From: a virus | Length of the DNA stretch: 64,000 nt | Direction: 5' to 3' (one strand) | Virus record (IMG/VR): IMGVR_UViG_3300048904_000222 | Span: 1 to 64,000 of that record | In this document: one piece after another, positions 3,825-49,642 of the stretch | How the letters are laid out: each line of letters begins with the position of its first letter | How positions within the stretch are numbered: position 1 is the first letter of the stretch | Program-made: the position numbers and the translations under genes | The notes under the pieces: model-generated | Database searches by the model: none | What the model saw: only the letters and a program-made list of their open reading frames with translations | Told to the model about the DNA's origin: nothing

Positions 3825-4125
3825 CTTTCTTCACCTCTTCGTCAGTCATTTGGTCGACTTGCTGCTTGACATCGACCGCCTGTTGCTTGGCGTCCAGGTG
3901 CGCTTGTGCTTCTTCCTGCGCGGCCTGCGCAGTGGCCGCCGTGTTTTCTGCTTGGCGCTGCGCGGCCTGCGCTGCCTGTACCTTGCTTTCGGCCTGCCCG
4001 CTGGCCTGCGCTGCGCCTGCGCTCTTGCCCCGCTGCCAGCCTAGTACACCTACGGCAAGCGCGCCGAGAGCCCCTAGCAGCCATTTCCACAGGCCCGTCG
4101 CAAATAATGCTGCCAGAATACTCAT
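3799..4125 (-). CDS. i-spanin (Rz-like)
   Basis: 108 aa with an N-terminal TMD (ILAALFATGLWKWLLGALGALAVGVLGW) followed by an Ala/Gln/Glu-rich coiled-coil-like periplasmic part. Lies directly after the endolysin gene. Confidence 0.75.
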   Translation of the reverse strand: MSILAALFATGLWKWLLGALGALAVGVLGWQRGKSAGAAQASGQAESKVQAAQAAQRQAENTAATAQAAQEEAQAHLDAKQQAVDVKQQVDQMTDEEVKKDVGSNWSR

Positions 4126-4145
4126 ATCAAGCTCCTACATCGAAG

Positions 4146-4703
4146 TTACACACCGCCAAATGCGCGGTTCAGCTGCCAGCCGTATTCGAACGTCTCCTGT
4201 GAAGGCGTCTTTTCAGCCAGTTCAATATAAAACACCGATTGCAGGGATTGAACCATGCCGCGAATCACTTTGACACCGTCGGTTCCACGCTTTCCCACAA
4301 GCGAGCGCAACGCGCCGATTGTGGCTGGGCCTAGCGCACCGTCGACGGTTACGTCCGGGTAATCCTTGCCCTGCTGGTTCAGGACGTTCAACGCCCGTTG
4401 TAGAGCTTGGACGGGCCGACTTGGGCCGGAGTTCACGCCCCAATCGAACATGCGGTAGGCCAATACCGAATCGATTGCGTCGATCTGATCCCATTTCGGC
4501 TTGATCCAGAATTCCTTCATGTAGACGTTGTATGCTTCGTCATACATGCAGGTTTCGACGGACCGACCGGGATAGTACTTGGAGAACATCACCTGCGTGA
4601 CGCCCCATTTGGTCGGGCCGCCACGGTCGACAGGATTGTTCGTATATGCGGACCCTTCTTTCAGGATCGTGGATACGATAGCCTTCTCCGCTTGCGGATT
4701 CAC
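4146..4703 (-). CDS. Endolysin (GH108-type N-terminal domain plus peptidoglycan-binding C-terminal domain)
   Basis: Track ORF 4146..4916 trimmed to GTG 4703, which overlaps the holin stop (GTGA) and is preceded by GGAGAC. The product VNPQAEKAIVSTILKEGSAYTNNPVDRGGPTKWGVT... matches the EGG-x-DxGGxTxxG(I/V)T pattern of GH108 lysozymes. The discarded N-terminal extension is Arg/Ala-rich nonsense overlapping the holin gene. Confidence 0.85.
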   Translation of the reverse strand: MNPQAEKAIVSTILKEGSAYTNNPVDRGGPTKWGVTQVMFSKYYPGRSVETCMYDEAYNVYMKEFWIKPKWDQIDAIDSVLAYRMFDWGVNSGPSRPVQALQRALNVLNQQGKDYPDVTVDGALGPATIGALRSLVGKRGTDGVKVIRGMVQSLQSVFYIELAEKTPSQETFEYGWQLNRAFGGV

Positions 4704-4978
4704 TGTGGGTCTCCGGCCGGATCTTGCGGTTGGTCTTTCGGTTCCAGTTTGACGCGGATCAGTCGCGCGACGAGTGTGGTCACCAGCGCCAGCGCACCCA
4801 CCCAGCGCGTGGTCCCGCTCGGCAGCGCGTCTTTCAGGTCTTGGGGAATTTGGTGCCAGACATCGAGCAGCGTCGGCCCGAAAATGAAGAATGCGCTCCA
4901 CGCGCCAGCAAACCACACGGAGCTACTACGCTTGAGCCGCGAGACTTCAGCGGCGAGCTCGATTCGGATACGGTTCAT
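4700..4978 (-). CDS. Holin (two predicted TMDs)
   Basis: 92 aa with two hydrophobic segments (VWFAGAWSAFFIFGPTLL; WVGALALVTTLVARLI) and a charged C-terminus. Lies immediately upstream of, and is translationally coupled to, the endolysin gene. Confidence 0.7.
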   Translation of the reverse strand: MNRIRIELAAEVSRLKRSSSVWFAGAWSAFFIFGPTLLDVWHQIPQDLKDALPSGTTRWVGALALVTTLVARLIRVKLEPKDQPQDPAGDPQ

Positions 4979-5294
4979 TCTGTTGGCCCCTTACAAAGCC
5001 GCCGTTGACGGCCCCGTTGAACATGAGTTGGTCGATCTTGTTGTTGAGATCCCGCAACTGGCTGATAACTTCGGATCGCATTTCGGTTTGAGACGCTTCA
5101 ATCCGGCGGAAATGGTCTTCCTGGCTTGTGTTGACTTGCTCGATAAGCGATACACGGCTTTGCAGGTCTTTAATCTGCGTCACACCGTAATACGCAATAC
5201 TTGCAAGCGTGGTAACGACGGCGATAATCGTGGGGAGATTAACCGTCCCATCGAACCAATTTCTGCGGGTTGGATTTTGCGATGGTGTGCTCAA
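4947..5294 (-). CDS. Membrane-anchored coiled-coil protein (possible lysis regulator)
   Basis: 115 aa with a single TMD (LPTIIAVVTTLASIAYYGV) followed by a heptad-like segment. Overlaps the holin start by 32 nt. Confidence 0.5.
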   Translation of the reverse strand: MSTPSQNPTRRNWFDGTVNLPTIIAVVTTLASIAYYGVTQIKDLQSRVSLIEQVNTSQEDHFRRIEASQTEMRSEVISQLRDLNNKIDQLMFNGAVNGGFVRGQQNEPYPNRARR

Positions 5295-5351
5295 AATAAA
5301 ACCTCCGTAGCGATTGCCAGGAGGTTACGATATTTAACAGTTAAATTCGTA

Positions 5352-5846
5352 TCAATCAACGGCCGGGAGCGCCATGAGGCGTTCGAATTCACGGGCTTGC
5401 AACAACCGCCGCACGCGTTCCTGGTAATAATCGAGAAAATCGTCCCAGGATAATTCCACACGCACCTTTTTCCACATCGGATCGCAGTTCTCCACGCAGG
5501 GTGCCGGGTATTGCATCCAGGTGTACATGACCACACGCCGTGGCTGACGGCTCTGTCTGAAGATCAGCACCGGTTCTTGCTGGGCGCGTTGCGCGGAGAG
5601 CTCCGTTTGCTTCCACCACGTATTGACGGAAAGGGCTTCCTGGCGCTTGATTTCGATTGCCAGACCCCATGTGTTCGTCAGGTCGCATCCGCCAACAGCC
5701 GTCTGAATCTGATTGCGTTGCGCACCATCGTCCGCCCAGCTGAATGGCATATTGCACGCCTTAAATGCCAAAGACGCTCGATAATTCAGAGCGTCTGCAA
5801 CTTCTCGTTCTTCCCCTGCACCCTTAGCACGGATGTTGATTGCCAT
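5352..5846 (-). CDS. PD-(D/E)XK nuclease, Hjc-like Holliday-junction resolvase candidate
   Basis: 164 aa with KGAGEEREVADAL near the N-terminus and GGCDL...LAIEIKRQE (a D...ExK motif), resembling archaeal Hjc and phage resolvases. Confidence 0.55.
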   Translation of the reverse strand: MAINIRAKGAGEEREVADALNYRASLAFKACNMPFSWADDGAQRNQIQTAVGGCDLTNTWGLAIEIKRQEALSVNTWWKQTELSAQRAQQEPVLIFRQSRQPRRVVMYTWMQYPAPCVENCDPMWKKVRVELSWDDFLDYYQERVRRLLQAREFERLMALPAVD

Positions 5847-5982
5847 GTTTCTGGACCTCTTTTATGAATGCTGCAAAATTGACAATTGCGAACAGCACTC
5901 CCATCACGCCGAGTCCTGAAATTGGCAAACTTGCGCCAAGCAATGTTCCAGACAAAAACAGGTTCAAGTGATAGGAGTGCAT
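5824..5982 (-). CDS. Small membrane protein (52 aa)
   Basis: Hand-found ORF below the track's 60-aa cut-off. ATG 5982 is preceded by AAGGAG at 5-nt spacing. Product MHSYHLNLFLSGTLLGASLPISGLGVMGVLFAIVNFAAFIKEVQKHGNQHPC is hydrophobic. Its 3' end overlaps the nuclease start by 23 nt. Confidence 0.45.
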   Translation of the reverse strand: MHSYHLNLFLSGTLLGASLPISGLGVMGVLFAIVNFAAFIKEVQKHGNQHPC

Positions 5983-5991
5983 GACTGCTCC

Positions 5992-6501
5992 TTACTGGCC
6001 GGACACCTTGTAATTTTCCGGCTGGTCGTCGGTTCGAGAATGCATGGATTTCGGCTTTCGGTTGCAGGTGAAACCAGCGTCGCGCATGGCATTGTAAACC
6101 TCTTCGCTGATTTGGCACCGGACCCCGATAGCCGCCGTTTGCAGCGCGGCCGCATTCTTGGCATCGATCGTGGATTGCCGAGCCAATTCAGCGGCCGCAA
6201 CCTCCAGCACGCACGACGGGCTGTCCTTGCTTGCGCCGCCCGCGATGCTGAAACCTGCAACGGCGACGCCTGCCTGCGCAGTGCTTGCGCAGTTCATCTG
6301 TGAGAAACTCGACGCATACGCGCCGAGGATCGGTGCGCTGACGTTTCGAATCGTCTGCGACGTATGCTCCGGCGTCTGCGAAAACTGAATGCTGCCTTGT
6401 GCAACAGACTGCGAAGTTGCTTCCTGTTGCGCACTGGAACTTGCCGCTTGCGCGAATGCCAGTGACGGGAACAAGAGTGCCGTGAACAGAATCTTTTTCA
6501 T
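5992..6501 (-). CDS. Secreted protein of unknown function (Sec signal peptide, 4 Cys)
   Basis: 169 aa starting MKKILFTALLFPSLAFA-QA, a classical signal peptide. The mature part is Ala/Ser/Gln-rich with four cysteines. Confidence 0.7.
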   Translation of the reverse strand: MKKILFTALLFPSLAFAQAASSSAQQEATSQSVAQGSIQFSQTPEHTSQTIRNVSAPILGAYASSFSQMNCASTAQAGVAVAGFSIAGGASKDSPSCVLEVAAAELARQSTIDAKNAAALQTAAIGVRCQISEEVYNAMRDAGFTCNRKPKSMHSRTDDQPENYKVSGQ

Positions 6502-6528
6502 GGAATGCCTCAGGTCTTAGTTTGTGAA

Positions 6529-6625
6529 CAGGCGGCAGACGGCAGGGTACTTCTCTCGGGGCTACACACGTGCTGGCTAAATTATGGAACTTAATCCAAC
6601 CGAGAACCCTGCCGACTGCCGCCTG
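6529..6625. promoter_or_regulatory. Long imperfect inverted repeat (20-nt arms, 1 mismatch) between two exported-protein genes
   Basis: CAGGCGGCAGACGGCAGGGT (6529-6548) pairs with ACCCTGCCGACTGCCGCCTG (6606-6625). Inner TCTCGG/CCGAGA can extend the stem. Lies between the stop at 6658 and the start at 6501. Confidence 0.6.
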
Positions 6626-38318: not shown

Positions 38319-38392
38319 CGTGAATGCGTCATGTTAAAGTGCATTCACGTTTGCAAAAACACACCCGACCCGATTACATTTCACTGGAGAGC

Positions 38393-39025
38393 ATGATGAG
38401 CGACAAGACCCCCGAGCAACTGGCGGCAGAACAGGCAGCGGCGGCCGCTGCACAAGCGAAGGCAGCAGAAGCGGCTGCCGCGAAGGAAGCGAAGGCCCAG
38501 GAAGCGGCGCGCAAGAAGGAAGAGCGCGAAGCTGCCAAGGCGGCCAAGCTGGCAGAAGCCGAAGCGAAGAAGGCCGAACTCGAAGCGGCCAAGGCTGCCA
38601 AGGTCGCGGAAAAGGAAGCCGCGAAGAAGGCGAAGGAAGACGAGAAGGCCCGCAAGGCGGCCGAGAAGGAAGCGGCGAAGGCGGCGAAGCAGAAACCGAA
38701 GATGCCCGAGCAGAACGGCGTCCGCCGCCCCGGTCCGGACGGCGAGTGCGGCAAGGCGTGGGCGGTGTTCGACAGCATCTCGCAGTCGCAGAATGCACCG
38801 TGCGCGATCTCGCAAGCCATCACCGTCGCCAAGGCGATGGAGCCGCCGCTCAACGAAGGCAACCTCCGCACCGAATACGCGCGCTGGAAGAAGTTCAACG
38901 GCCTGACCGGCAAGATCGACGCGCCGAAGACGCCGGAGCAGATCGAAGCCGAAAAGGCAGCGGCAGCGAAGGCGGCGGAGCTGGCCGCGCAGCAGCAAGC
39001 GGCAGCGCAGCACCCGCAAGCGTAA
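38393..39025 (+). CDS. Ala/Glu/Lys-rich (histone-H1-like) protein with paralog-family C-terminal domain
   Basis: Trimmed to ATG 38393, preceded by GGAGAG. About 100 aa of AAKEAKAQEAARKKEE-type low complexity are followed by QNGVRRPGPDGECGKAWAVFD...NEGNLRTEYARWKKFNG. Confidence 0.6.
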   Translation: MMSDKTPEQLAAEQAAAAAAQAKAAEAAAAKEAKAQEAARKKEEREAAKAAKLAEAEAKKAELEAAKAAKVAEKEAAKKAKEDEKARKAAEKEAAKAAKQKPKMPEQNGVRRPGPDGECGKAWAVFDSISQSQNAPCAISQAITVAKAMEPPLNEGNLRTEYARWKKFNGLTGKIDAPKTPEQIEAEKAAAAKAAELAAQQQAAAQHPQA

Positions 39026-39246: not shown

Positions 39247-39323
39247 CCGAGTGTAGCGCAGCCCGGTAGCGCATCTGATTTGGGATCAGAGGGTCACAGG
39301 TTCGAATCCTGTTACTCGGACCA
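39247..39323 (+). tRNA. tRNA-Pro (anticodon UGG), CCA encoded
   Basis: Manual cloverleaf. Acceptor CCGAGTG/TACTCGG (one G-U pair), U8-A9, D-stem GCGC/GCGC, anticodon stem TCTGA/TCAGA. The anticodon loop is TT-TGG-GA and the variable loop is GGGTC. T-stem ACAGG/CCTGT with loop TTCGAAT, discriminator A, then CCA. 77 nt. Confidence 0.9.
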
Positions 39324-40079
39324 GTTTCGGGTCATCTGTTTGGTTTCTTTTTGTGTCCGCGCGCAAACAGCAGATGGGTGACCCGAGCCGTGGTGGTGGC
39401 AGTTCGGCCATAAACAGCCGGGCCAAAGCCAAACGCGCCGTGACGGTCACGGAACCGTGGCCCCGGGTAGAAACGGGGCGCTTACCTTGAAGCACCCGAG
39501 CTGACCGGACATCAGTAGTGGCGCGTGAGGCTTGTCCCCTTGCCCGCAGAAGCTCAACCAGACGGCCTCAGAAACCAGAGGGTAGTCGGGTGTTTCAAAG
39601 TGGGCGTACCAGGAAGCGCCTTTCGTCCTCCTTCGCATACCAATTTGGTCGTTGGTGCGGTCGTCACAGCGGAGGGCGCTTCCTGGTGCCGTGCACCTGT
39701 GCGCTAAACCTGTGCCGCGGATACGTCTGCACCACGGGAGAGATGCTGGAAGTCCGATAAGATGCGCTGGCGTCTTGCGCACATGCGGGGAAGCACTGGT
39801 GAACCCGCGCCGTAGTCCATTTCGCTTAAGACTTTAAACTGTAGCGGGTGCGGTATCGTGGTGGCGGCTTGTTCCGCAGACTTACGGCCGTACACTTCGC
39901 GGTCACCACAAGTGGTCGCACGACACCAATCGCGCTTACGTGATAAAACTGTGCGCGGTCGGGCGATTGCGCCGGGTCGACATATCACACTTCGGTGGAG
40001 ATGAACGTCGCCCGGCGCAAGTTCGGCTACAATTAATCCAGTCAACCTGCCCTAGCTGGGCCACCTCACTGGAGCTATA
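39324..40079 (+). ncRNA. Candidate large structured noncoding RNA (or long structured leader) downstream of tRNA-Pro
   Basis: About 750 nt with only short, mutually overlapping ORFs in all six frames, all of Arg/Cys-rich nonsense composition. Multiple strong stems are present. ACCAGGAAGCGCC (39608-39620) pairs with GGCGCTTCCTGGT (39675-39687), extendable to about 20 bp. CCGTGAC-G-GTCACGG lies at 39438-39452 and CCCCG-GGTAGAAA-CGGGG at 39461-39478. An imperfect stem joins 39328-39342 and 39365-39386. Strand is assumed from the flanking genes. Confidence 0.4.
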
Positions 40080-40859
40080 ATGCCCGTCATCAATATCCAG
40101 CCGCGCGAGAAGCTGGATCATTTCTCCCAAGATTTCCTCGAAGTACATTCCATTTTCGACACGATCCAAGGTGAAGGCCCGTTCGCCGGCCGCGCTGCCG
40201 TGTTCGTGCGGCTGGCTGGGTGTAACCTGCAATGCCCCGGTTGCGACACCGACTATACGGGCAATCGGGCAAAGATGGCGACGCCCGAGATTGTCATGGA
40301 AGTCAACAGCATGGTGAGCCAGCGGCGTGAAACCAACGTGACACCGCCACTTGTGGTTATCACGGGTGGGGAACCGCTTCGCCAGAACATCACGCTTCTG
40401 TGTGAGATGTTAGTCACTGCGGGTTGCCAAGTCCAACTCGAAACGAACGGGGTGTTGCCGCCTCCGCCGGGACTTCTGGATATTTGCACTGCAGAGGAAT
40501 ACCTCTGTTTTCCTGCGAATGTGCCGAGAATTCTGCATCGTGAATCTGGATTGTTCATCGTTGTGTCGCCGAAAACGCATCGCATCAACAGCCAGATTGC
40601 CAGCTACGCAAGCGCGTACAAATACGTCGTGAATGAAGAGCAAGGAACCGACGGCCTGCCGAACGTCGCGCTTGAAAACCGAACGAACGGCCCGCTGGCC
40701 CGGCCGCCGGAATGGTGGCGCGGCCCCGTGTACGTGCAGCCGCAAGACGAGCAAGACGAGGCTCGCAACCGTCGAAATCTCGACACCGCAATGGCGCTGT
40801 GCCGCAAGCACGGTTACATACTTCAAGTACAGCTCCACAAAATCATCGGGGTGGAATAA
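40080..40859 (+). CDS. queE: 7-carboxy-7-deazaguanine synthase (radical SAM)
   Basis: 259 aa. IQGEGPFAGRAAVFVRLAGCNLQCPGCDTDYT carries the CX3CX2C radical-SAM cluster in the QueE context. GGAG lies upstream. Confidence 0.85.
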   Translation: MPVINIQPREKLDHFSQDFLEVHSIFDTIQGEGPFAGRAAVFVRLAGCNLQCPGCDTDYTGNRAKMATPEIVMEVNSMVSQRRETNVTPPLVVITGGEPLRQNITLLCEMLVTAGCQVQLETNGVLPPPPGLLDICTAEEYLCFPANVPRILHRESGLFIVVSPKTHRINSQIASYASAYKYVVNEEQGTDGLPNVALENRTNGPLARPPEWWRGPVYVQPQDEQDEARNRRNLDTAMALCRKHGYILQVQLHKIIGVE

Positions 40860-41119
40860 TGAAAGAAGCTCTGGAAAATATGGAGTGCGAAGTCAGCGAT
40901 ACGAACGCGGGGTTTAAGTTTCGTCTCGTGAACAAGCGCACCGGGCAGAAGACGTTGTGGTGCGGTTACACGATGCACTGTTACCTCGACGGTTGGGTGG
41001 CAGCATCACAGTACTATCTTCCGGAATCCAAAGAATGTCGTCCGATCGACCCGGACGAGTTTTGCCGCCTGACTGCGTCGGGTATTCTCGAATACGAACC
41101 GAAGGAAATCACCAAATGA
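40859..41119 (+). CDS. Hypothetical protein (86 aa) inside the que cluster
   Basis: Trimmed to ATG 40859, which overlaps the queE stop (TAATG). The stop overlaps the queC-like start (ATGA). Confidence 0.5.
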   Translation: MKEALENMECEVSDTNAGFKFRLVNKRTGQKTLWCGYTMHCYLDGWVAASQYYLPESKECRPIDPDEFCRLTASGILEYEPKEITK

Positions 41120-41952
41120 GAAAGCAAAGCGCTCTCGTCGTCCTCAGCGGCGGCCAAGACTCCACCACGTGCCTGTATTGGGCGATCGAAAAATACGGCA
41201 AGGAGAACGTGCATGCGGTCACGTTCGACTACGGCCAGCGGCACAGTATCGAAATCGAAGCGGCTGAATTCATCGCCGACATGGCGGGGATTGCGGGCCA
41301 TGAAACGATCGACGTGCGCGGCATTTTGCAGAGCACGAGCCCGCTGACCAGCACCAACCAGCTCGACAAGTACGAGAATTTCCAACAGATGGAAGCGGCC
41401 GTCGGCAACAACATCGAGAAGACGTTCGTGCCGATGCGCAACACGCTGTTCCTCACCATCGCAATGAACCGTGCGATCGCCATCGGCGCGCAGGTTGTGG
41501 TGACCGGGATCTGCCAGGAAGACAACGCGAATTACCCGGACTGTACGGAGAATTTTCGCAGGAAGCTTGAAGCCGCATTCGACGAAAGCCTTCGCGGCGA
41601 CCGCGCAGAGCTTCCGCGTTTCGAAATCGAAACCCCGCTGATGTATCTGTCGAAGGCGGCCACCGTGTACTTGGCAAACGAGCTGCCGGGGTGCATGGAC
41701 GCGCTGGCTCGTTCCCACACCAGCTACGACGGCAAGTTTCCGCCGACCGACAACAACCATTCGAACCTGCTGCGGGCGCACGGCTTCTGCGAAGCGCACG
41801 TGCCTGACCCGCTTGTGCTGCGTGCGTGGGCCGAAGGTTTGATGGATCTTCCGCCGACGATCAACTATCGGGACGAAGCTCTGCAGGAATTCTTCGCAAA
41901 GCATCGCTCTGACTTCTTCAAGAACATCGAGTACAAACTGTACGGCGAGTGA
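41116..41952 (+). CDS. queC: QueC-like 7-cyano-7-deazaguanine synthase homolog lacking the Zn-binding cysteines
   Basis: Trimmed to ATG 41116. Has the PP-loop VVLSGGQDSTTC and VPMRNTLF, GICQEDNANYPDC. Where QueC normally has TxSCY...CGxCxxCxxR, this protein reads SHTSYDGKFPPTDNNHSNLLRAHGF. It also has a ~45-aa C-terminal extension. Confidence 0.75.
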   Translation: MRKQSALVVLSGGQDSTTCLYWAIEKYGKENVHAVTFDYGQRHSIEIEAAEFIADMAGIAGHETIDVRGILQSTSPLTSTNQLDKYENFQQMEAAVGNNIEKTFVPMRNTLFLTIAMNRAIAIGAQVVVTGICQEDNANYPDCTENFRRKLEAAFDESLRGDRAELPRFEIETPLMYLSKAATVYLANELPGCMDALARSHTSYDGKFPPTDNNHSNLLRAHGFCEAHVPDPLVLRAWAEGLMDLPPTINYRDEALQEFFAKHRSDFFKNIEYKLYGE

Positions 41953-42383
41953 TGGACATCGTCACGCACGCGGTAGTCGGTGCTGCAACGGGTGCGGCCT
42001 TTGGCCGCCCGTTTGCGGGTATGGCATTCGCCGTGCTGCCCGACTTATTCCTGTTTAGCGTCAAGCGGCGCGATACCCCTACGGCTGCGTATAACGCCAG
42101 CCACAGCTTCGCCGGGCTGGTGCTCGTTACCATACTGGCCGGGCTGTACGCGCCGAGCCTAGGTGGCGTGGCCTTCTTTGCGTATGCGTCCCACATTGTG
42201 CTTGACGTGCCAACGCACGGCGAGCGCTGGGCTCCCCCGCTCATGTGGCCGAGCAAGCGTAGATACAGCATGGGGGACGAATGGGAATGGTTTAATTATT
42301 CCTGGTTCCACGGTGCATTTCTTGCCATTCTATGGATCATTGTATGCCTTCCACTGTCACTATCTCACATTGGTTCCCGGTAA
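41952..42383 (+). CDS. DUF457/YdjM-like membrane-bound metal-dependent hydrolase
   Basis: 143 aa. MDIVTHAVVGAATGAAFG...LPDLF...SHSFAG...SHIVLDVPTH shows the His/Asp pattern of the family. 3-4 hydrophobic segments. Confidence 0.55.
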   Translation: MDIVTHAVVGAATGAAFGRPFAGMAFAVLPDLFLFSVKRRDTPTAAYNASHSFAGLVLVTILAGLYAPSLGGVAFFAYASHIVLDVPTHGERWAPPLMWPSKRRYSMGDEWEWFNYSWFHGAFLAILWIIVCLPLSLSHIGSR

Positions 42384-42730
42384 TCACCTTCTGTCCGGTG
42401 AACGGCCTCCCCGATGTTATCTATCTGTACGTGACGTTTCCTGCCGACGAATTTGTCGAACTGTACGGTGTGCGCAAGGACATCAAGCGCAACTGGCGTT
42501 TCAGAAAGATGTTCATGGAGGATGTCGCCAAGGAAGCGCTCGAGTACTTCAAAAAGGCGTTGTCGGTTGAAGTGCGGTTGGCAACCGGGCGGCACACTGT
42601 ATTGCTGGTGCGGCAGAAGGCGCTGATTGTCGACGAACCGCACCAAGACATCACGATCAAACTTGACACCCGTGATGTGCAGGAATACATTGCCTGTAAA
42701 CTGGACAAAATCAAAATAGGTGACCTGTGA
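42344..42730 (+). CDS. QueF-like T-fold protein (no recognisable NADPH motif)
   Basis: Track ORF 42332..42730; the start is uncertain (ATG 42332 or 42344). VITFCPVNGLPDVIYLYVTFPADEFVELYGVRKDIKRNWRFRKMFMEDV aligns by eye with QueF [48 protein letters not shown]. Cys and Asp are kept; the ESKSLKLY motif and the His are not. Confidence 0.5.
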   Translation: MPSTVTISHWFPVITFCPVNGLPDVIYLYVTFPADEFVELYGVRKDIKRNWRFRKMFMEDVAKEALEYFKKALSVEVRLATGRHTVLLVRQKALIVDEPHQDITIKLDTRDVQEYIACKLDKIKIGDL

Positions 42731-43182
42731 GCTATCGCGTAACCAAGACCTACGACCACTCGCTCGGCTTGAGCGCCTGCTTCCGCCAGTGGCGGGCAGC
42801 CAGCCATTGCCGCCATCTGCACGGCTACGCGCTCGCTTTCGAGTTTGTATTCGAGGCTGAGGAACTCGACGACCGCAATTGGGTTGTCGACTTTGGCGGT
42901 CTCAAGCAACTCAAGCACCTGCTCGAGCAGACGTTTGACCACAAGCTTGTGGTGGCAGGCGACGATCCGTATCTGGACGAAATCTGCCAGCTCGCCGGTA
43001 TCGACGTCGCCAGCGTTACCATGTTTCCGGATGGGGTTGGCTGCGAGAAATTCGCAGAATACGCATTCGGACTGGCGAAGGAAGTCCTGTGTCAGCTGCG
43101 GGTTCAGGACCGTGTTAAAGTTGTGTCCTGCGAATGCCGCGAACATGGTGGCAATAGCGCAACGTATCAACCTTCCAAGTAA
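42727..43182 (+). CDS. queD: 6-carboxy-5,6,7,8-tetrahydropterin synthase
   Basis: 151 aa with a GTG start overlapping the previous stop. CRHLHGYALAFEFVFEAEELDDRNWVVDFGGLK fits the PTPS/QueD pattern (CxxxHGH-like with DFG). Confidence 0.8.
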   Translation: MSYRVTKTYDHSLGLSACFRQWRAASHCRHLHGYALAFEFVFEAEELDDRNWVVDFGGLKQLKHLLEQTFDHKLVVAGDDPYLDEICQLAGIDVASVTMFPDGVGCEKFAEYAFGLAKEVLCQLRVQDRVKVVSCECREHGGNSATYQPSK

Positions 43183-43192
43183 AGAGACTTTA

Positions 43193-43870
43193 ATGAACGC
43201 TCCCGAAAAAGACGAATATCTCGAAGGTATCATTGGCCCGGTCGACGATCGGCCGTTTCAGGCAACATCGTTGACCGTGAACGGCGCGCAGTTTTACCCG
43301 CCGCTTGGCGCAGAACAAACGGAGCAAGAGAACCTGATTCGCGGGCTGCTCGATGACATCATTGGGGAAGACGTAGACCGCGAAGGTTTGCTGGAAACCC
43401 CGGCGCGCGTTGTCAAGGCGTGGAAACACTGGTGTGGAGGTTACAAGATCAATGTTCAAGAACTCATCAAGTCGTTTGCTGACGGGGCCGAAGGGGCAGA
43501 CGAAATGGTCGTTCGCAAAGGCATTCGCATCTACAGCCATTGCGAACATCATTTGGCACCCATTATCGGCGAGTGCACGATCGCTTATATTCCTAATGGA
43601 AGCGTGGTCGGCCTGTCGAAGCTGGATCGTATCGCGGATGCGTTCGCGCGCCGGCTGCAAGTGCAAGAACGGCTGACGTCGCAGATTGCGGACGCGTTGT
43701 GGGAAGGCTTGCGCCCGCTTGGCGTCGGCGTCCATATCAAGGCGCGGCACATGTGCATCGAGTCGCGCGGCGTGATGCAGCACAACAGCGATACGATGAC
43801 CACAGCCCTGCGCGGCGTGATTAAATCCGAATCCGACGCTCGAGCTGAATTCATGGCGCTGGTGCGGTAA
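43193..43870 (+). CDS. folE: GTP cyclohydrolase I
   Basis: Trimmed to ATG 43193; 225 aa. Contains LLETPARVVKAW, YSHCEHHLAPIIG, GLSKLDRI, RRLQVQERLT and HMCIESRGV, the classical FolE motifs. Confidence 0.9.
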   Translation: MNAPEKDEYLEGIIGPVDDRPFQATSLTVNGAQFYPPLGAEQTEQENLIRGLLDDIIGEDVDREGLLETPARVVKAWKHWCGGYKINVQELIKSFADGAEGADEMVVRKGIRIYSHCEHHLAPIIGECTIAYIPNGSVVGLSKLDRIADAFARRLQVQERLTSQIADALWEGLRPLGVGVHIKARHMCIESRGVMQHNSDTMTTALRGVIKSESDARAEFMALVR

Positions 43871-44248
43871 AATGGTTCTGTAGTGCCTATGCCATGCCCG
43901 AATCCCTGTACGGTTAAGACATGGTGTAGATGGTCCGTGAGGCAACCTAAAATGCGCAAGCGACGGGAGGTTATGGCCCCGTAGAGCGTGGAGGCGCTCA
44001 GTATCCTTCCAAACCGGCAGGCGGGTGGAAAGCCCGCACACTTTAGGATCAGAAATGCGGAAATGCAAACGTGTCTGGCGTAAGCGGTGGCCTGTTCACT
44101 ATAACGTGAAAACTCCTCGGCTTAAGGAGCCTGAGCGCCGACGCGAGATTAATCATAACTCGCGCAAAGTCGTATTTAAATTGCGACGCACGGTACGCGT
44201 ACCGCTTTATCGACACATCTTTTGGGAACGCATGGGCGTTTACTGGAA

Positions 44249-44482
44249 ATGAATTTTCTCAACATGAATCGGCTTCAGGCTGCAGTCGACGAGATCAATG
44301 CTGTGTGCAAGAAGCATGGCATTGTACTGGTCGGCGTGAGCAATGGCGAACAGGTGTACGGAGAAATCCTCGTGCATGAAGTTGGTACGCACAGTCAATG
44401 GTCGAAACCTGAAACGCTGCCGACGAAGCTCGAGTTTCTTGATCACGAGTTCTATACAACCGCAATTGGAACCAAGGAATAA
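44249..44482 (+). CDS. Hypothetical protein (77 aa)
   Basis: Trimmed to ATG 44249, with a weak RBS. An alternative start lies at 44264. Confidence 0.4.
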   Translation: MNFLNMNRLQAAVDEINAVCKKHGIVLVGVSNGEQVYGEILVHEVGTHSQWSKPETLPTKLEFLDHEFYTTAIGTKE

Positions 44483-44483
44483 C

Positions 44484-44918
44484 ATGAAGCCCGTACTGCA
44501 TCCCAGCAACACGCGCACGCTCGACGCTCCGAAGCACAATGCCACAAGCGGAAAAATTGTTCCGATCGGCATTACGGACGTGCTGGACGGCGGTATCCCG
44601 TATGTGGTCAGCTTCTGGCAGCCGTCTGCGGGCGAGCTCGAGTGTTTGCAGCACGGCGGCAGCGTTAGCCTGTGGTTGCTGGGCCAAACGATGCCGGTCA
44701 CGGCGATTTCGGTCGACGGCAAAAAGACAATCGACAGTATGCCGCACATCGGCGGTTTCGACGGTATGGACGCAGACCGTCGGCCTGCGGGTTGGACTGT
44801 CGAAGAATGGAATCTCGGTTCGTGGTTGGCTGCTGCACTCGACGACCCGAAAGCCTGCGCTGAGTTCAAGCGCGACATTCAAGCATGGTTCGACATGCTG
44901 GAGTCGCGTAAGAAATGA
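44484..44918 (+). CDS. Hypothetical protein (144 aa) immediately upstream of dpdA
   Basis: Trimmed to ATG 44484, preceded by AAGGAA. The stop overlaps the dpdA start. Confidence 0.5.
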   Translation: MKPVLHPSNTRTLDAPKHNATSGKIVPIGITDVLDGGIPYVVSFWQPSAGELECLQHGGSVSLWLLGQTMPVTAISVDGKKTIDSMPHIGGFDGMDADRRPAGWTVEEWNLGSWLAAALDDPKACAEFKRDIQAWFDMLESRKK

Positions 44919-45862
44919 TCGGGTTTCAGTACAACCTGTATCTGGCCGCCGTGTACACGAACAACTACATGCGCGGCCAACGTCTTTACGAAGACTTCAA
45001 CGATCGCGAAAAGCTGGTTGCGGATACGGCGTTACCACACATCCTCGAATCCTGGCACTATGTTGGCGCGCAGCGATACGTGGACGCCATGCGGGCAAAC
45101 GGCGCACAAATCTTCTTGGACAGTGGTGCATTCTCCGCATACACGCTTGGCGTGAAATTGCGCGTGGAGGACTACGTCGGATATATTCAGAAGAACGTTG
45201 ACATCCTTCGTAAGGAAGACAATGTCGTCATGGCATCGGTGCTTGACGGTATTGGAGACCCCCTCGAAACTTGGCGCAACCAGACAGCAATGGAGGCGAT
45301 GGGTGTGCGGCCGCTGCCGTGCTTCCACGCGGGTGAAGATGAACGATATCTTGAACACTACGTTTCAAAGTACGAATATATCACCCTTGGCGGGATGGTT
45401 GGAGTTAGCACAAAGCAACTCTGTACGTGGCTCGATCGAGTGTGGGGCAGATACCTTGTGGATGGCAGCGGTCGAGCTCGAATCAAAGTCCATGGATTCG
45501 GCATCACGGCTCGATCTATTATGGAACGCTATCCTTGGCACTCAGTTGACTCTTCTTCCTGGATTCAATCCGCTTCCTTCGGTTCCATTGAAACCCCTGA
45601 GCATGGGCCTATCAGCGTTTCCGAGAAAAGCCCAGCACGTCACGATGCTGGACAGCATCTGACAACCCTCACTCCGCTTGAGCAGGACTATCTGTATCGG
45701 AAACTTGAAGAGGCGGGGTTCACATACGAACGTCTATCGACTGTTTATCAGTCACGCGCAGCGTATAATCTATGGGCCTATGGCGTAATCAACGCCAGCA
45801 TCAACGCTATGAAGGCGAAACGCGATGGCACTTTCGGGGCCGAAGTTATGGAACTCTTCTAG
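44915..45862 (+). CDS. dpdA: DpdA-family DNA 7-deazaguanine transglycosylase (TGT-like)
   Basis: 315 aa. FLDSGAFS, ITLGGMVG, VHGFGIT and HSVDSSSW fit the phage DpdA / queuine tRNA-ribosyltransferase-like TIM-barrel pattern. It is co-located with preQ0 pathway genes. Confidence 0.75.
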   Translation: MIGFQYNLYLAAVYTNNYMRGQRLYEDFNDREKLVADTALPHILESWHYVGAQRYVDAMRANGAQIFLDSGAFSAYTLGVKLRVEDYVGYIQKNVDILRKEDNVVMASVLDGIGDPLETWRNQTAMEAMGVRPLPCFHAGEDERYLEHYVSKYEYITLGGMVGVSTKQLCTWLDRVWGRYLVDGSGRARIKVHGFGITARSIMERYPWHSVDSSSWIQSASFGSIETPEHGPISVSEKSPARHDAGQHLTTLTPLEQDYLYRKLEEAGFTYERLSTVYQSRAAYNLWAYGVINASINAMKAKRDGTFGAEVMELF

Positions 45863-45870
45863 GAGGTTGT

Positions 45871-45948
45871 ATGTGGAATGATGTCGCCGCAGCTCTCTTC
45901 GTGTTCTGCGCTGTGGCGCTGGCCTACATGGCAATCAAGAACAAGTGA
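45871..45948 (+). CDS. Possible 25-aa hydrophobic peptide
   Basis: Hand-found ORF: strong AGGAGG 4 nt before ATG 45871. Product MWNDVAAALFVFCAVALAYMAIKNK. Very short, so speculative. Confidence 0.3.
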   Translation: MWNDVAAALFVFCAVALAYMAIKNK

Positions 45949-46072
45949 TAACCGGATATTTTAAAAGCACGACGCATTGCTATCTAGTTTATCTGGAGTA
46001 CAAAGCGTTCTGCGTTGCGAACGGCTGGGATTTCATTTCCTATAAGCGATGGCTCAAACGGAGTAAAATAAA

Positions 46073-46357
46073 GTGAAATACATCGTTTTCTCGAAGGACA
46101 TTGGTGACGGGATCCGCAAGGAATATCCCGTTATCATTCCGAACGACCTGACACACGCGGACGTCGCTAACGGGATGATGGAATATTGCCCGGAACTCAA
46201 GGGGGCAACCGTGGTTGGAGCGGGCGAACTGTCTTGTATGGACATTCAACCCGAATGCCACGGCTCATCACCAACGCTCGGTGTCCCCAGCCGCGGAACG
46301 AGCGACGATCGTGCGTTCATTATGCGCGACTACCATCATGGGGTAATCGATGCTTGA
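46073..46357 (+). CDS. Hypothetical protein (94 aa)
   Basis: Track ORF with a GTG start and GGAG upstream. Overlaps the clamp gene start by 8 nt. Confidence 0.45.
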   Translation: MKYIVFSKDIGDGIRKEYPVIIPNDLTHADVANGMMEYCPELKGATVVGAGELSCMDIQPECHGSSPTLGVPSRGTSDDRAFIMRDYHHGVIDA

Positions 46358-47327
46358 CGCAATTCGTTTCGTTCAAGGCAGCGTTGCAAAGAAAGAATTC
46401 CTGCCTTCTCTGACACACTTTGTTATCGAGAACAACACAATTCGCGGGTACGACGGCGTCATTGCATTGTGCGCCCCAATTGCGCTCGATCTCGAGTGTA
46501 AGCCGAAAGCAGAGCCCTTCTTTAAGGCCGTGCAGGCGTGTGGTGACGAAGGGCTTGCGCTCGCCATGACACCCAACGGACGTCTGTCTGTCAAGTCCGG
46601 CAAGAAGCGGTTTCTGGTGGACTGCTATCCTGAAGACAACACACCGCACGCCAAACCGGATGGCGATCATGTACATCATCTTTCGGATGGCAAAGCTTTC
46701 TATGATGCGCTCGAAACGATCGCTCCATTTATCGGCAACGACGCAAGTCGGCCGTGGAGTAATGGGGTGCTGATCGACGGGCCGCAGATGTACGCGACAA
46801 ACAACATCGTTCTGACCAATATCTGGCATGGCGGCAACTTCCCACACAAGGTCTGCGTTCCCGCCAAATGCGTCAAGGAGATTCTACGTGTCAAACAACC
46901 ACCAATCAAGCTGCAACTCGGGACGTCGGCTATCACGTTTCACTTCGAAGATGGGCGTTGGATTCGTACGCAGCTTATTTCTACTGACGGATGGCCTGAT
47001 ATTGGTCGTGTCCTCGATCGACACTGTACGGAGAACCCTACGGCGGTTGACCCCGCGCTGTTTGACGCGCTCCGCACGATCAAGCCGTTCGTGAATGCGA
47101 TGTCGACCGTCTACATGCAAGACGGGGTTGTAACCACAACGCTCGCCGACGAAAGCGGGGCGACGGTTGAAGTTGCTTCCGTGAAGCACAAGGGTGTTTT
47201 CGGGCTGGAGATGCTTCTCTTGCTTGAGGGAGTGGCCCAAAATATTGATTGGGCCGCGTACCCTGCTCCCTGTCTCTGGTTCGGCAAGAAGCTGCGCGGA
47301 GCTATTGTCGGTCAACGTGGAGGATAA
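46350..47327 (+). CDS. DNA polymerase sliding clamp, DnaN (beta)-like
   Basis: 325 aa. The N-terminus FVQGSVAKKEFLPSLTHFVIENNTIRGYDGVIAL and the internal RPWSNGVLIDGPQMYATNNIVL resemble the beta-clamp pattern (...P.L..v.ie....l..ATD...). The size fits a three-domain clamp, and a polymerase gene is adjacent. Confidence 0.55.
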   Translation: MLDAIRFVQGSVAKKEFLPSLTHFVIENNTIRGYDGVIALCAPIALDLECKPKAEPFFKAVQACGDEGLALAMTPNGRLSVKSGKKRFLVDCYPEDNTPHAKPDGDHVHHLSDGKAFYDALETIAPFIGNDASRPWSNGVLIDGPQMYATNNIVLTNIWHGGNFPHKVCVPAKCVKEILRVKQPPIKLQLGTSAITFHFEDGRWIRTQLISTDGWPDIGRVLDRHCTENPTAVDPALFDALRTIKPFVNAMSTVYMQDGVVTTTLADESGATVEVASVKHKGVFGLEMLLLLEGVAQNIDWAAYPAPCLWFGKKLRGAIVGQRGG

Positions 47328-47328
47328 A

Positions 47329-47472
47329 ATGTTTGGTCCTGTTCAACAAGTGTCCCTGCCGCCCGCAATGAATACGCGGCCGTCAGGGATGCCAACGCCG
47401 CAAGGCACCGCAGTGATCCATGGCGTGCTGCGCCCGGTGCAGATCCCGCACGCAACGGATCCGAAGCAGTAA
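47329..47472 (+). CDS. Hypothetical Pro-rich peptide (47 aa)
   Basis: GGAGGA lies 4 nt before ATG 47329. It is followed directly by a terminator. Confidence 0.4.
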   Translation: MFGPVQQVSLPPAMNTRPSGMPTPQGTAVIHGVLRPVQIPHATDPKQ

Positions 47473-47480
47473 GCAGTACC

Positions 47481-47502
47481 GCCCGGCTTCGGCCGGGCTT
47501 TT
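47481..47502 (+). terminator. Intrinsic terminator
   Basis: GCCCGGC-TTCG-GCCGGGC followed by TTTT. Confidence 0.8.
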
Positions 47503-47551
47503 GCGCTATTGGCCCGCAATAAATGGCCTAACACTTTCAGTAGAATACAAA

Positions 47552-49642
47552 ATGCGTAGAGATGCTATCGGCCTCTTCTGGGAAGATCTTCCTCCCGAAA
47601 AGAAAGCGAAGAAAGAAAAGGTCAAGCGGCAACCGCCGCCCCGCGTGTGGGAAAGCCCGGACTACCTGCCGGGGCTCGAAGAAGCCCGCGCGTTCAACGT
47701 GCCTCTATTTACGGACCAAGAGTTGCTCGACGCAGCTTGGACCGAAGGCAAGAAAGAACCACTCGTATTCGACATCGAGTGTTACCCGAATTACTGGCAG
47801 TGTGCGTTCATGGGGTTGCGTAGCCGGAAGGTGATCAACTTCGAATATTCGCCCGGTGCAACGGTTGACTACGCACGGCTATCGTGGATCGTCAGTAATT
47901 GCCTGCTTGTCAGCTTCAACGGTATGAACTATGACCAATACATCTTATCGATGGCGGTCAACGGTTGCACCACCGAGCAGATGTATGAAGCGACGAAGCG
48001 CATCATTGAAGAAGAGATCAAGGGTTGGCAAGTAATTCGCAGCTACAGGACTAAGTCGCTGAAGCTCAACCACATCGATTTGATGGAGGTTGCGCCGCTT
48101 TTTGCCAGCCTGAAAGTTTATAACGGGCGCATGCACGGAAAGCGAATGCAAGACTTGCCGGTAAAGCCCGGCACCGTGCTTACGCAGGACCAAGCTACAA
48201 TTGTTCGATATTACTGTATCAACGACTTGACGGTTACGGCAAATCTGTATCTTGAAATTGAAGAACAGATTGATTTGCGCACGGACATGAGCAAGTCGTA
48301 CCAGATTGAACTCCGAAGCAAATCCGATGCGCAGATTGCAGAAAAGATCATTGCAGCGAAGTACGAGAAGCTAACGGGTCGCGAGCCTCACGTTCCCACA
48401 ATCACGCCGGGTACGGCCTACCGGTACGAGGTTCCGCACTTCATTAAGTTCCAGACTCCGCTTATGCAACGGGCGCTGGACATTGTCAAGAATTGCTGGT
48501 TCGTAGTGTCGGAAAAGGGTTCGATCATTAACCCGGCAGCGCTTGACGGCCTAACGATCCCGATGGGCCATTCCACCTACACAATGGGGATTGGTGGCCT
48601 ACACAGCACCGAGAAAAAGCAGGTTCTGGAGGCCCGTAATGGGTGGATTCTGCGTGACCGTGATGTCACTTCCTATTATCCAATCATCATTATTATGCTC
48701 GGGCTGTTCCCAGAACACTTGGGACGGGAATTCCTGGATATCTATAGTGATATCTACGGCGAACGAGTTACAGCCAAGGGCCTCATTAAGAAGTGGAAAG
48801 AAGCTGGCAATGCAGAACGGGAGCTGCACGCCAAGATTCTGTCCGCAACGCTGAAGATTGTTCTGAATGGCTCGTACGGAAAGTTCGGTAGCATGTATTC
48901 GATCATCTACAGCCCGCGACTTATTATCCAGACTACGCTGACCGGGCAATTGTCCATTCTGATGTTGATTGAAACACTTGAGCTGGCGGGCATTAGCGTG
49001 GTCAGCGCCAACACAGACGGCTTCGTTACCTACAGCCACGAAAGTGTTCAGGCGAAGGTTGACGAAATCGTAAATGACTGGATGAAACGTACTGGCTTCA
49101 CACTTGAAGACACCGATTACACGGGGCTCTACAGCCGGGACGTGAATAATTATATCGCGCTGAAAGCCGATGGTAAGTTCAAGGGCAAAGGTGTGTTTGC
49201 TGACCCGTGGGGTGCGCGGGCTGAAGGCGAACAGGTCAACCCGGAAGAGTACTTCAAGAAAAACCCGTCCTGTCAGATTTGCACGGAAGCTGTTGTCAAG
49301 CTACTGCGTGACAAACAACCGATCGAAAAGACCATCCGTGAATGTCGCGATATCCGCCGCTTTGTGCACGTCACAACTGTTGGATATGATAAAGAAGCCG
49401 GGGTTGGCGGTGGCGTAAAAATTTGGGAAGATGGTCGGATCCAATACCTTGGCAAAGCCGTTCGCTGGTACTATAGCAATCAAGTGACCGGAGAAATAAT
49501 CCGGGCGGCTAACGGTAACAAGGTTGGTCAGAGTGACGGTGCAAGACCTTGCATGGATTTGCCTGAAGAATTCCCGGACGATATCGACTATGAGTACTAT
49601 ATCGAACGGGCCAATAAATACCTCGGATGGTTAGGATACTGA
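47552..49642 (+). CDS. Family-B DNA polymerase with 3'-5' exonuclease domain
   Basis: Track ORF trimmed to the first ATG after the terminator (47552); 696 aa. Exo motifs are FDIECYP, NGMNYDQYIL and YCINDL. Pol motifs are DVTSYYPII (A), KIVLNGSYGKFG (B) and SANTDGFV (C). Confidence 0.85.
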   Translation: MRRDAIGLFWEDLPPEKKAKKEKVKRQPPPRVWESPDYLPGLEEARAFNVPLFTDQELLDAAWTEGKKEPLVFDIECYPNYWQCAFMGLRSRKVINFEYSPGATVDYARLSWIVSNCLLVSFNGMNYDQYILSMAVNGCTTEQMYEATKRIIEEEIKGWQVIRSYRTKSLKLNHIDLMEVAPLFASLKVYNGRMHGKRMQDLPVKPGTVLTQDQATIVRYYCINDLTVTANLYLEIEEQIDLRTDMSKSYQIELRSKSDAQIAEKIIAAKYEKLTGREPHVPTITPGTAYRYEVPHFIKFQTPLMQRALDIVKNCWFVVSEKGSIINPAALDGLTIPMGHSTYTMGIGGLHSTEKKQVLEARNGWILRDRDVTSYYPIIIIMLGLFPEHLGREFLDIYSDIYGERVTAKGLIKKWKEAGNAERELHAKILSATLKIVLNGSYGKFGSMYSIIYSPRLIIQTTLTGQLSILMLIETLELAGISVVSANTDGFVTYSHESVQAKVDEIVNDWMKRTGFTLEDTDYTGLYSRDVNNYIALKADGKFKGKGVFADPWGARAEGEQVNPEEYFKKNPSCQICTEAVVKLLRDKQPIEKTIRECRDIRRFVHVTTVGYDKEAGVGGGVKIWEDGRIQYLGKAVRWYYSNQVTGEIIRAANGNKVGQSDGARPCMDLPEEFPDDIDYEYYIERANKYLGWLGY

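Follow-up and report, generated by a model that had tools for sequence, protein, structure and literature searches.

A DUF457/YdjM-like membrane protein paired with a QueF-L-like T-fold protein in a phage 7-deazaguanine DNA-modification island

Modification of phage DNA with 7-deazaguanines blocks restriction enzymes and Cas9, and the catalogue of enzymes that diversify the precursor preQ0 is still being compiled. To our knowledge, no phage QueF-L has been validated to date. Here we analyze a 7-deazaguanine island in a stretch of 64,000 nucleotides (nt) of the virus record IMGVR_UViG_3300048904_000222 (positions 1-64,000; hereafter the window, to which all coordinates refer unless another locus is named), in which the genes for a DUF457/YdjM-like membrane protein and a QueF-L-like T-fold protein lie between queC and queD.

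The closest described relatives of this locus differ in how far they take preQ0. The Queuovirinae phages 9g, Vid5, and MiCath have the same backbone and operon order as the window, and their DpdA proteins are 67-74% identical to that of the window. Fusions of an amidotransferase (Gat) domain to QueC have been described in 9g, Vid5, and NP1 (PMC7472734), and 2'-deoxyarchaeosine (dG+) is present in the DNA of 9g (PMC6884629) and Vid5 (PMC8306585). The DpdA of 9g was shown to insert preQ0 into DNA and, together with Gat-QueC, yields dG+ (PMC6884629). Phage CAjan encodes a plain QueC and has the preQ0 deoxynucleoside (dPreQ0) in its DNA, and in the virion DNA of phage Iggy dPreQ0 is the sole deazaguanine, at 16.9% of G (PMC10484667). 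The archaeal enzyme QueF-L, an archaeosine synthase, acts on preQ0 already in tRNA, via a Cys thioimide and with free NH4+ only, and its authors left room for an ammonia-generating partner protein in vivo (PMC5485725); our statements on the QueF-L active site rest on that work and on alignments. In the cluster gp36-gp30 of Sphingomonas phage MMDA13, a Gat-less QueC, a hypothetical gene, and a QueF-L were described, and dG+ was predicted from sequence (Marmo et al. 2020, PMC7472734), so that the phage QueF-L-like gene is a putative component predicted before this analysis. A 2023 survey found no QueF-L among the phage QueF homologues that it collected (PMC10516641).

The window encodes QueE, QueC, QueD, FolE, and a phage DpdA on the plus strand (40080-45862) in tightly overlapping genes, and thus contains DpdA together with all four preQ0 enzymes by which Hutinet et al. 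(2019) recognize a phage DpdA/preQ0 cluster. The stop/start junctions along this interval mostly overlap (ATGA/GTGA), which fits a single operon. A sequence-only reading had described the region as a phage FolE-QueD-QueE-QueC plus DpdA island with extra members, devoted to 7-deazaguanine DNA modification, and this description holds. All of the genes it named are present on the plus strand where it had placed them, every motif it quoted is seen in the translations (including CNLQCPGC, SGGQDS, FLDSGAFS, HGFG, and DSSSW), and the profile searches it had proposed, carried out as Pfam, PHROG, and NCBIfam scans, back each named assignment, which establishes the gene identities directly. The island itself is an ordinary member of the known DpdA/preQ0 DNA-modification system, and the cluster is predicted to replace part of the guanines in the phage's own DNA with a 7-deazaguanine base.

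In the Gat-QueC phages a Cys-containing QueC carries a fused class-II glutaminase domain, in whose place the window has a rare addition of two separate genes:

41952-42383, plus strand: DUF457/YdjM-like small helical membrane protein (alternative GTG start at 41949)
42344-42730, plus strand: mini QueF-L-like T-fold protein (alternative ATG at 42332), overlapping the DUF457 gene by 40-52 nt

We propose, with a probability of roughly one half, that preQ0 is synthesized, inserted into DNA by DpdA, and then converted to dG+ by a QueF-L-like enzyme that is held at the membrane or fed by DUF457.

Several lines of evidence relate the T-fold protein to archaeal QueF-L. Its AlphaFold2 (AF2) model is a confident T-fold (beta-beta-alpha-alpha-beta-beta), with a predicted local distance difference test (pLDDT) score above 90 for residues 1-90. 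A C-terminal extension of 35 residues (94-128; window 42623-42730), which is modelled with low confidence, is partly common to the closest metagenomic relative, L002, and is not found in any other family member. In a Foldseek search of the PDB the top seven matches are QueF-L chains (5K0P/5JYX; E ~1e-4, template modelling (TM) score 0.62, 22% identity), followed at lower ranks by GTP cyclohydrolase I, QueF, and QueD. A profile built from 60 family sequences likewise places 5JYX at the top of the PDB (E = 0.0018); the remaining matches, all weak, were engineered proteins, and no QueF came up in that search at E <= 10. Comparison by hhalign with nine Thermoproteales QueF-L sequences gives a probability of 78.5% (E = 1.7e-5). 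A profile of eight sequences matches QueF-L at E = 1.3 only, and a PDB search with the single sequence returned only spurious matches to tetratricopeptide (TPR) repeats.

The likeness extends to part of the active site. QueF-L of Pyrobaculum calidifontis (5JYX/5K0P) is, as the phage protein, a minimal T-fold of about 100 residues without an NADPH site, and the two have in common a CP..(S/N)...D motif and a Glu in an (H/M)E(E/D).A helix. Residues C17 and D24 of the phage protein align with the thioimide Cys (C21) and the general acid/base Asp (D28) of the P. calidifontis enzyme; C17 is conserved in 58, D24 in 55, and E59, the Glu of the LHEE helix, in 57 of the 60 family members. The T-fold and these catalytic residues are thus directly established, and the phage family has conserved residues of its own in H9-W10, R44, and H84. 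A word-indexed search had yielded only eight relatives of the protein; HMMER, run exhaustively against 1.84 billion representatives, returned 80 at E <= 0.001 and 63 at E <= 1e-10, nearly all of 60-130 residues. The window, with about 10 lineages related to it, defines a QueF-L-like family that is distinct and phage-borne and comprises roughly 80 clusters (50% identity).

The same comparisons bear on whether the protein could be a nitrile reductase, in which case the DNA would carry the preQ1 deoxynucleoside (dPreQ1), as in phages Dp-1, HVTV-1, and phiSM. Such an assignment would agree with a 2023 study in which every phage QueF homologue examined aligned with bacterial QueF and none with QueF-L (PMC10516641), with a weak match of the window protein to NCBIfam QueF-II (9e-4), and with the presence of R44 and K45, which could imitate part of the NADPH motif. 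However, the motif itself, E(S/L)K(S/A)hK(L/Y)(Y/F/W), occurs in 0 of the 60 family members, confirming the earlier description of a short QueF-like protein that lacks it, and the proteins, at about 90-100 residues, have none of the extra segments of unimodular QueF. Furthermore, QueF-L outranks QueF both in the PDB profile searches and in Foldseek. The Pfam QueF model (PF14489) does not match the window protein and finds only three of the 60 family members, all at E >= 0.025; against TIGR03139 (QueF) the window protein scores 19.1 bits versus a cut-off of 86.9. We regard dPreQ1 as very unlikely and as the least probable of the outcomes considered here.

The partner protein matches PF04307 at 1e-9 (38.6 bits versus a gathering threshold of 29), in agreement with the DUF457-like membrane protein that had been read inside the operon, and its AF2 model consists of six helices (pLDDT 93.3). 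Like DUF457/YdjM proteins in general (PF04307; COG1988, 'membrane-bound metal-dependent hydrolase'), it is a membrane protein built of helices, to which its hydropathy profile also points, and His and Asp residues are conserved in it. Across 25 homologues D2, H6, D31, H51, S80-H81, D85, T88-H89, and W93 are invariant and an EWEW motif is nearly so, and Lys/Arg counts, read by the positive-inside rule, put these His and Asp residues at the cytoplasmic face. This His/Asp pattern is what speaks for a putative metal-dependent hydrolase, the nature after which COG and JGI name DUF457. The window-type proteins constitute a phage-specific subfamily of 123-157 residues which, in the contexts examined, is found next to QueF-L-like genes only. 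Among the members of the DUF457/YdjM family are E. coli proteins of unknown function that are SOS-regulated, and E. coli YdjM is longer than the phage proteins. Two apparent mentions in preprints were false leads: the 'DUF457' of a Cap1 preprint is DUF4579, and the 'YdjM' of an enzyme-prediction preprint is a misprint for YjdM.

We see the two genes side by side in 10 independent lineages, namely the window, L002, L005, L008, L010 (MMDA13), L013, L014, L015, L016, and L018, always with the QueF-L-like gene directly downstream of DUF457, and among these lineages are phages that differ in their terminases and in their DNA polymerases. The called frames overlap in nine of the 10. The genes of L018 are 23 nt apart as called, but there the QueF-L frame extends upstream over the DUF457 stop, making an overlap probable in that lineage too; in L008 the pair is present though the gene was not called. 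The pair of L018 lies 5 kb from a queC/dpdA cluster whose QueC has the canonical Cys, and so the pair moves as a module.

Furthermore, the two domains occur fused. A short AT-rich contig of 902 bp (L032; JGI 3300001213) encodes, at its positions 162-797, a single protein of 211 residues in which a DUF457-like N-terminal part is followed by a QueF-L-like domain; folE, by its 3' end, forms one flank and dpdA, by its 5' end, the other. The DUF457 part is without the last helix and the EWEWFN motif, and in the QueF-L part the Asp is one position off and FMED has become FIEV. Since a DUF457 segment is missing, the protein is not readily explained by a simple frameshift in the two genes that usually overlap. 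That the pair is linked, and once fused, is directly observed, and on these grounds DUF457 and QueF-L-like form one conserved two-gene unit, in which DUF457 appears as the obligate partner. Full-text literature searches returned nothing that connects DUF457, or any membrane protein, with deazaguanine pathways; the module and its fusion form are new, and they were missed by the sequence-only reading and apparently by the literature as well. As a separate observation, L018, a PolA-type phage, has three paralogues of unknown function between its polymerase gene and the pair (PHROGs 18634, 11298, and 21588; L018 8145-9927).

Among GenBank phages the pair is found in MMDA13 only, where the order of genes is the same as in the window: queE, queC without Gat, the 137-residue gp34, the QueF-L-like gp33, queD, folE, dpdA, clamp, and polymerase. 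We find that gp34 is a DUF457 homologue 51.5% identical to the window protein, and gp33 is 47.8% identical to the window QueF-L-like protein. The QueC of MMDA13 likewise lacks the Zn-binding Cys; the authors who described the cluster called it canonical and left gp34 unannotated (PMC7472734). The suggestion of the sequence-only reading that the island may be an undescribed pathway variant does not stand, because this layout has already been published from sequence for MMDA13, with the same dG+ prediction (PMC7472734). MMDA13 differs from the window phage in its host and in being without the tRNA, the 756-nt region, and the small open reading frames (ORFs) orf86, orf77, and orf144 described below, and no nucleotide similarity between the two was found.

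The QueC proteins of these phages provide a second comparison. The window gene and the other named loci with the same QueC variant are:

41116-41952 of the window, plus strand: queC, predicted preQ0 synthase without a Gat domain (Pfam QueC at 8e-48; SGGQDS PP-loop)
4992-6053 of the Iggy locus (L011): Cys-less queC
3977-4813 of the Rhizobium phage RHEph06 locus (L012): Cys-less queC
5812-6597 of the MMDA13 locus (L010): Cys-less queC

With 161.3 bits against TIGR00364, the window QueC passes the equivalog cut-off of 150.3. Its Gat domain is absent: the protein has 278 residues, starts at the PP-loop, and covers positions 145-374 of the 418-position PHROG 1550 profile. MiCath, in contrast, has between queE and queD a Gat-QueC of 467 residues with intact Cys, and has neither a DUF457 nor a QueF-L-like gene. 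In an alignment (A2) whose Cys positions are set by the QueC sequences of MiCath, L007, and L018, the window segment SHTSYDG..PPTDNNHSNLLRA stands opposite C..CG.C..C; the stretch that replaces this motif is SHTSYDGKFPPTDNNHSNLLRA, and S, P, H, and N occupy the four Zn-ligand positions. The absence of all four Zn-binding Cys, already noted from the sequence, is therefore confirmed. The loss is not peculiar to this island, however, as the same variant occurs in Iggy (the best match, 61% identity), RHEph06, MMDA13, and several metagenomic phages, and this clade has a conserved tail, VPDPLVLRA..LM.LP.T.NY. Sequences of the Cys-less type were known before, but their peculiarity passed without comment, and the literature consulted treats them as conventional QueC. 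We considered and rejected a tie between Cys-less QueC and the DUF457/QueF-L-like pair: Iggy and RHEph06 have this QueC without the two extra genes, and L018 has the pair with a canonical-Cys QueC. Thus, the Cys loss is not linked to the unusual members of the island.

Iggy (Iggyvirus) resembles the window not only in its QueC but also in a small ORF between queE and queC and in operon order. It differs in having neither DUF457 nor QueF-L, in a C-terminal extension of 100 residues on its QueC, and in carrying dPreQ0 only. By analogy with Iggy, we infer that the Cys-less QueC would make preQ0 in the window phage. Since the same Cys-less QueC alone is accompanied by dPreQ0 only in Iggy, the added pair is the likely source of any chemistry beyond preQ0.

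This comparison also lends some support to a simpler outcome, in which the cluster stops at dPreQ0, as in Iggy and CAjan, and the pair serves precursor transport or salvage in the manner of the CAjan YhhQ, regulation, or superinfection exclusion, or is inactive. The closest QueC belongs to a phage whose DNA has dPreQ0 alone, CAjan has the membrane protein YhhQ directly downstream of queC, in the same position as DUF457 (PMC10484667), and a His that is invariant in QueF and QueF-L is missing from the phage protein. On the other hand, about 60 diverged sequences have kept the Asp and the Glu along with the thioimide Cys, which points to selection for preQ0-directed catalysis. In addition, the pair is found solely inside or beside dpdA/que clusters, and DUF457 is unrelated to YhhQ. 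We consider an end point at dPreQ0 unlikely, although among the alternative outcomes it is the one to which we give most weight.

For the pathway to dG+ that we favor, the steps would be as follows. FolE, QueD, QueE, and the Cys-less QueC would convert GTP to preQ0, and DpdA would exchange guanine in double-stranded DNA for preQ0. The conserved Cys of the QueF-L-like enzyme would then attack the nitrile of the DNA-bound preQ0 to form a thioimide, which ammonia would resolve to the amidine of dG+. The enzyme would work with, and probably be physically bound to, the DUF457 membrane protein, which may tether it to the inner membrane or may supply or activate the nitrogen nucleophile; in the latter case DUF457 would do the job of the glutaminase domain of Gat-QueC in related phages. 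What we infer from the genes is the order in which the steps run, dG+ as the product, and the part that DUF457 plays. The sequence-only reading held that the final base could not be predicted from sequence, and this is not wholly so: QueF-L is the nearest relative of the T-fold protein and the pair takes the place of the Gat domain in related phages, which makes dG+ the best prediction.

Several observations weigh against this pathway. The kinship with QueF-L is remote (22% identity), and with an intermediate profile of 12 sequences the QueF-L match was lost, significance being reached with the profile of 60 sequences only. The His of the LHEE helix, invariant in the nine Thermoproteales QueF-L sequences and conserved in QueF as well, is Met in 51 of the 60 phage proteins. 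Chemistry may accordingly differ from that of QueF-L, and because this invariant His is absent we name the protein QueF-L-like and not a QueF-L orthologue. Archaeal QueF-L also differs in its tRNA substrate, where that of the phage protein would be DNA, and in its genomic surroundings: none of 10 Thermoproteales queF-L loci has a DUF457 neighbour within 4 kb on either side. DUF457 as a general partner of QueF-L is rejected for archaea on this count, and the partnership is phage-specific, not a general need of QueF-L chemistry. Even among phages there is a sole exception, a short contig of 6.4 kb (L007) on which a QueF-L-like gene neighbours a canonical QueC and DUF457 is absent. PDB sequence and fold searches with the DUF457 protein gave no meaningful match, and literature and PDB searches found neither a solved structure nor an assay of DUF457; a supply of ammonia by this protein is conjecture. 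The host of Iggy also has queC and so can make preQ0 itself (PMC10484667).

Two other products could account for features that simple QueF-L chemistry does not explain, namely the His-to-Met change and the metal-hydrolase-like partner. In the first, water and not ammonia resolves the thioimide, so that dPreQ0 becomes dADG (the deoxynucleoside of 7-amido-7-deazaguanine) with the assistance of the hydrolase-like DUF457 protein, in an analogue of bacterial DpdC. Amides can arise from Cys-thioimidate chemistry, and a conversion of this kind exists, since DpdC converts preQ0-DNA to ADG-DNA (PMC10164549). No search, however, gave a connection with DpdC or nitrile hydratases, be it in sequence or in structure, the closest characterized relative of the T-fold protein produces an amidine, and the genomic position of the pair is that of the amidotransferase domain in relatives. 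Formation of dADG therefore seems rather unlikely to us, and it ranks after an end point at dPreQ0. In the second, the pair makes an undescribed 7-deazaguanine derivative, such as an N-substituted amidine, with a nucleophile provided by the membrane protein. Neither an obligate membrane partner nor an active-site His-to-Met change has a precedent in QueF or QueF-L, and ArcS offers a parallel, since it uses lysine as the nitrogen donor and attaches it first (PMC11298593). Yet the cluster holds no additional tailoring enzyme and simpler products account for all of the data, and we judge a novel derivative improbable, ranking it below dADG and above dPreQ1.

Returning to the pair itself, we also put forward, as a tentative suggestion to which we give well under even odds, that DUF457 and the QueF-L-like protein are the two components of one membrane-bound enzyme, in which a metal-binding membrane subunit would generate or deliver the nucleophile and the T-fold subunit would activate the nitrile of the DNA-bound preQ0.

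The remaining genes of the island and its immediate downstream neighbours are as follows:

40080-40859, plus strand: queE (PHROG 2076 at 1.4e-53; CNLQCPGC motif)
40859-41119, plus strand: orf86, small Cys-containing protein between queE and queC; no family match
42727-43182, plus strand: queD, 6-carboxytetrahydropterin synthase (PF01242 at 3.9e-17; PHROG 2389 at 1.5e-42)
43193-43870, plus strand: folE, GTP cyclohydrolase I (PF01227 at 1.4e-64)
44249-44482, plus strand: orf77; no family match
44484-44918, plus strand: orf144; weak matches to PHROGs of unknown function only
44915-45862, plus strand: dpdA, phage DpdA1-type DNA guanine transglycosylase (PHROG 887 at 4.3e-85)
45871-45948, 45945-46076, and 46073-46357, plus strand: three small ORFs between dpdA and the clamp gene, taken from the ORF list and from start-codon contexts
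46350-47327, plus strand: sliding-clamp-like processivity factor (PHROG 947 at 5.8e-71)
47420-49642, plus strand: DNA polymerase (PHROG 1252 at 6.1e-207)

FolE passes the equivalog cut-off of TIGR00063 (206.6 versus 181.6 bits), and QueE matches TIGR04508 at 1.4e-24, under the cut-off of that model. By tblastn, DpdA shares 74% identity with its counterpart in Pseudomonas phage MiCath and 66.6% with the one in phage 9g; with 16.5 bits against NCBIfam NF041059, for which the curated cut-off is 200, it is not of the bacterial type. The QueD signature reads CRHLHGY in the window and CNLLHGY in MiCath, versus the CxxxHGH quoted for bacterial QueD; in both, Tyr replaces the second Zn-ligand His, and this appears to be typical of this group of phage QueD proteins.

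The small ORFs starting at 40859, 44249, and 44484, listed earlier as unknown members of the island, are real, being kept at the same positions in L002 at 77% (orf86; L002 1815-2051), 52% (orf77), and 70% (orf144) identity. Apart from a counterpart of orf86 in Iggy (32% identity; L011 4760-4981), the three are conserved only in this closest metagenomic relative. The window, L002, and Iggy all have a small ORF between queE and queC, and all have a Cys-less QueC. One might wonder whether the small Cys-containing ORF is linked to the lost Zn site of QueC, although this is only a thought.

The island is set in a siphovirus genome with a terminase, a tape measure, a tail fibre J protein, a primase, a helicase, the clamp-like processivity factor, and a DNA polymerase, and the phage belongs to a Queuovirinae-like group of siphoviruses. 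When 50,697 phage records were searched with the island for near-identical nucleotide sequences, there was no match, relatives being visible at the protein level only, which suggests that the phage is new at roughly the genus level. Upstream of queE lie two further features:

39247-39323, plus strand: tRNA-Pro with anticodon UGG (ARAGORN; Rfam tRNA 66.6 bits)
39324-40079, plus strand: ORF-poor structured region of 756 nt between the tRNA and queE (folding versus shuffled controls)

These correspond to the tRNA and the structured non-coding region of about 750 nt that had been recognized ahead of the island. The minimum free energy of the region is -346.7 kcal/mol, compared with -300.3 +/- 7.1 for shuffled sequences (z = -6.5), and it is about 78% conserved at the same place in L002, with non-triplet indels. 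The region is not present in MiCath, Iggy, MMDA13, or L013-L016, an Rfam scan gave no match at E <= 1, two conserved-block scans of viral contigs returned nothing or chance matches only, and a metagenome scan recovered this same phage, at 99.8% identity, and no further relatives. The region may be a large phage non-coding RNA beside a tRNA, and is at most a putative member of the pathway. Just upstream of the tRNA, an Ala/Lys/Glu-rich low-complexity protein is encoded at 38324-39025, and MiCath has a counterpart in the same position (L001 4928-5530).

After Gat-QueC and ArcS, the module described here is a candidate for a third route by which DNA acquires dG+, and the occurrence of the same module in MMDA13 places it in a cultured phage. 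Its DUF457 protein is a candidate for the nitrogen-supplying partner that has been raised for QueF-L in vivo, and the linkage gives the DUF457/YdjM family a first functional context. If the two-component reading were true, it would provide the first function for this widespread family, and the product would be either dG+ made by a new route or an uncatalogued derivative.

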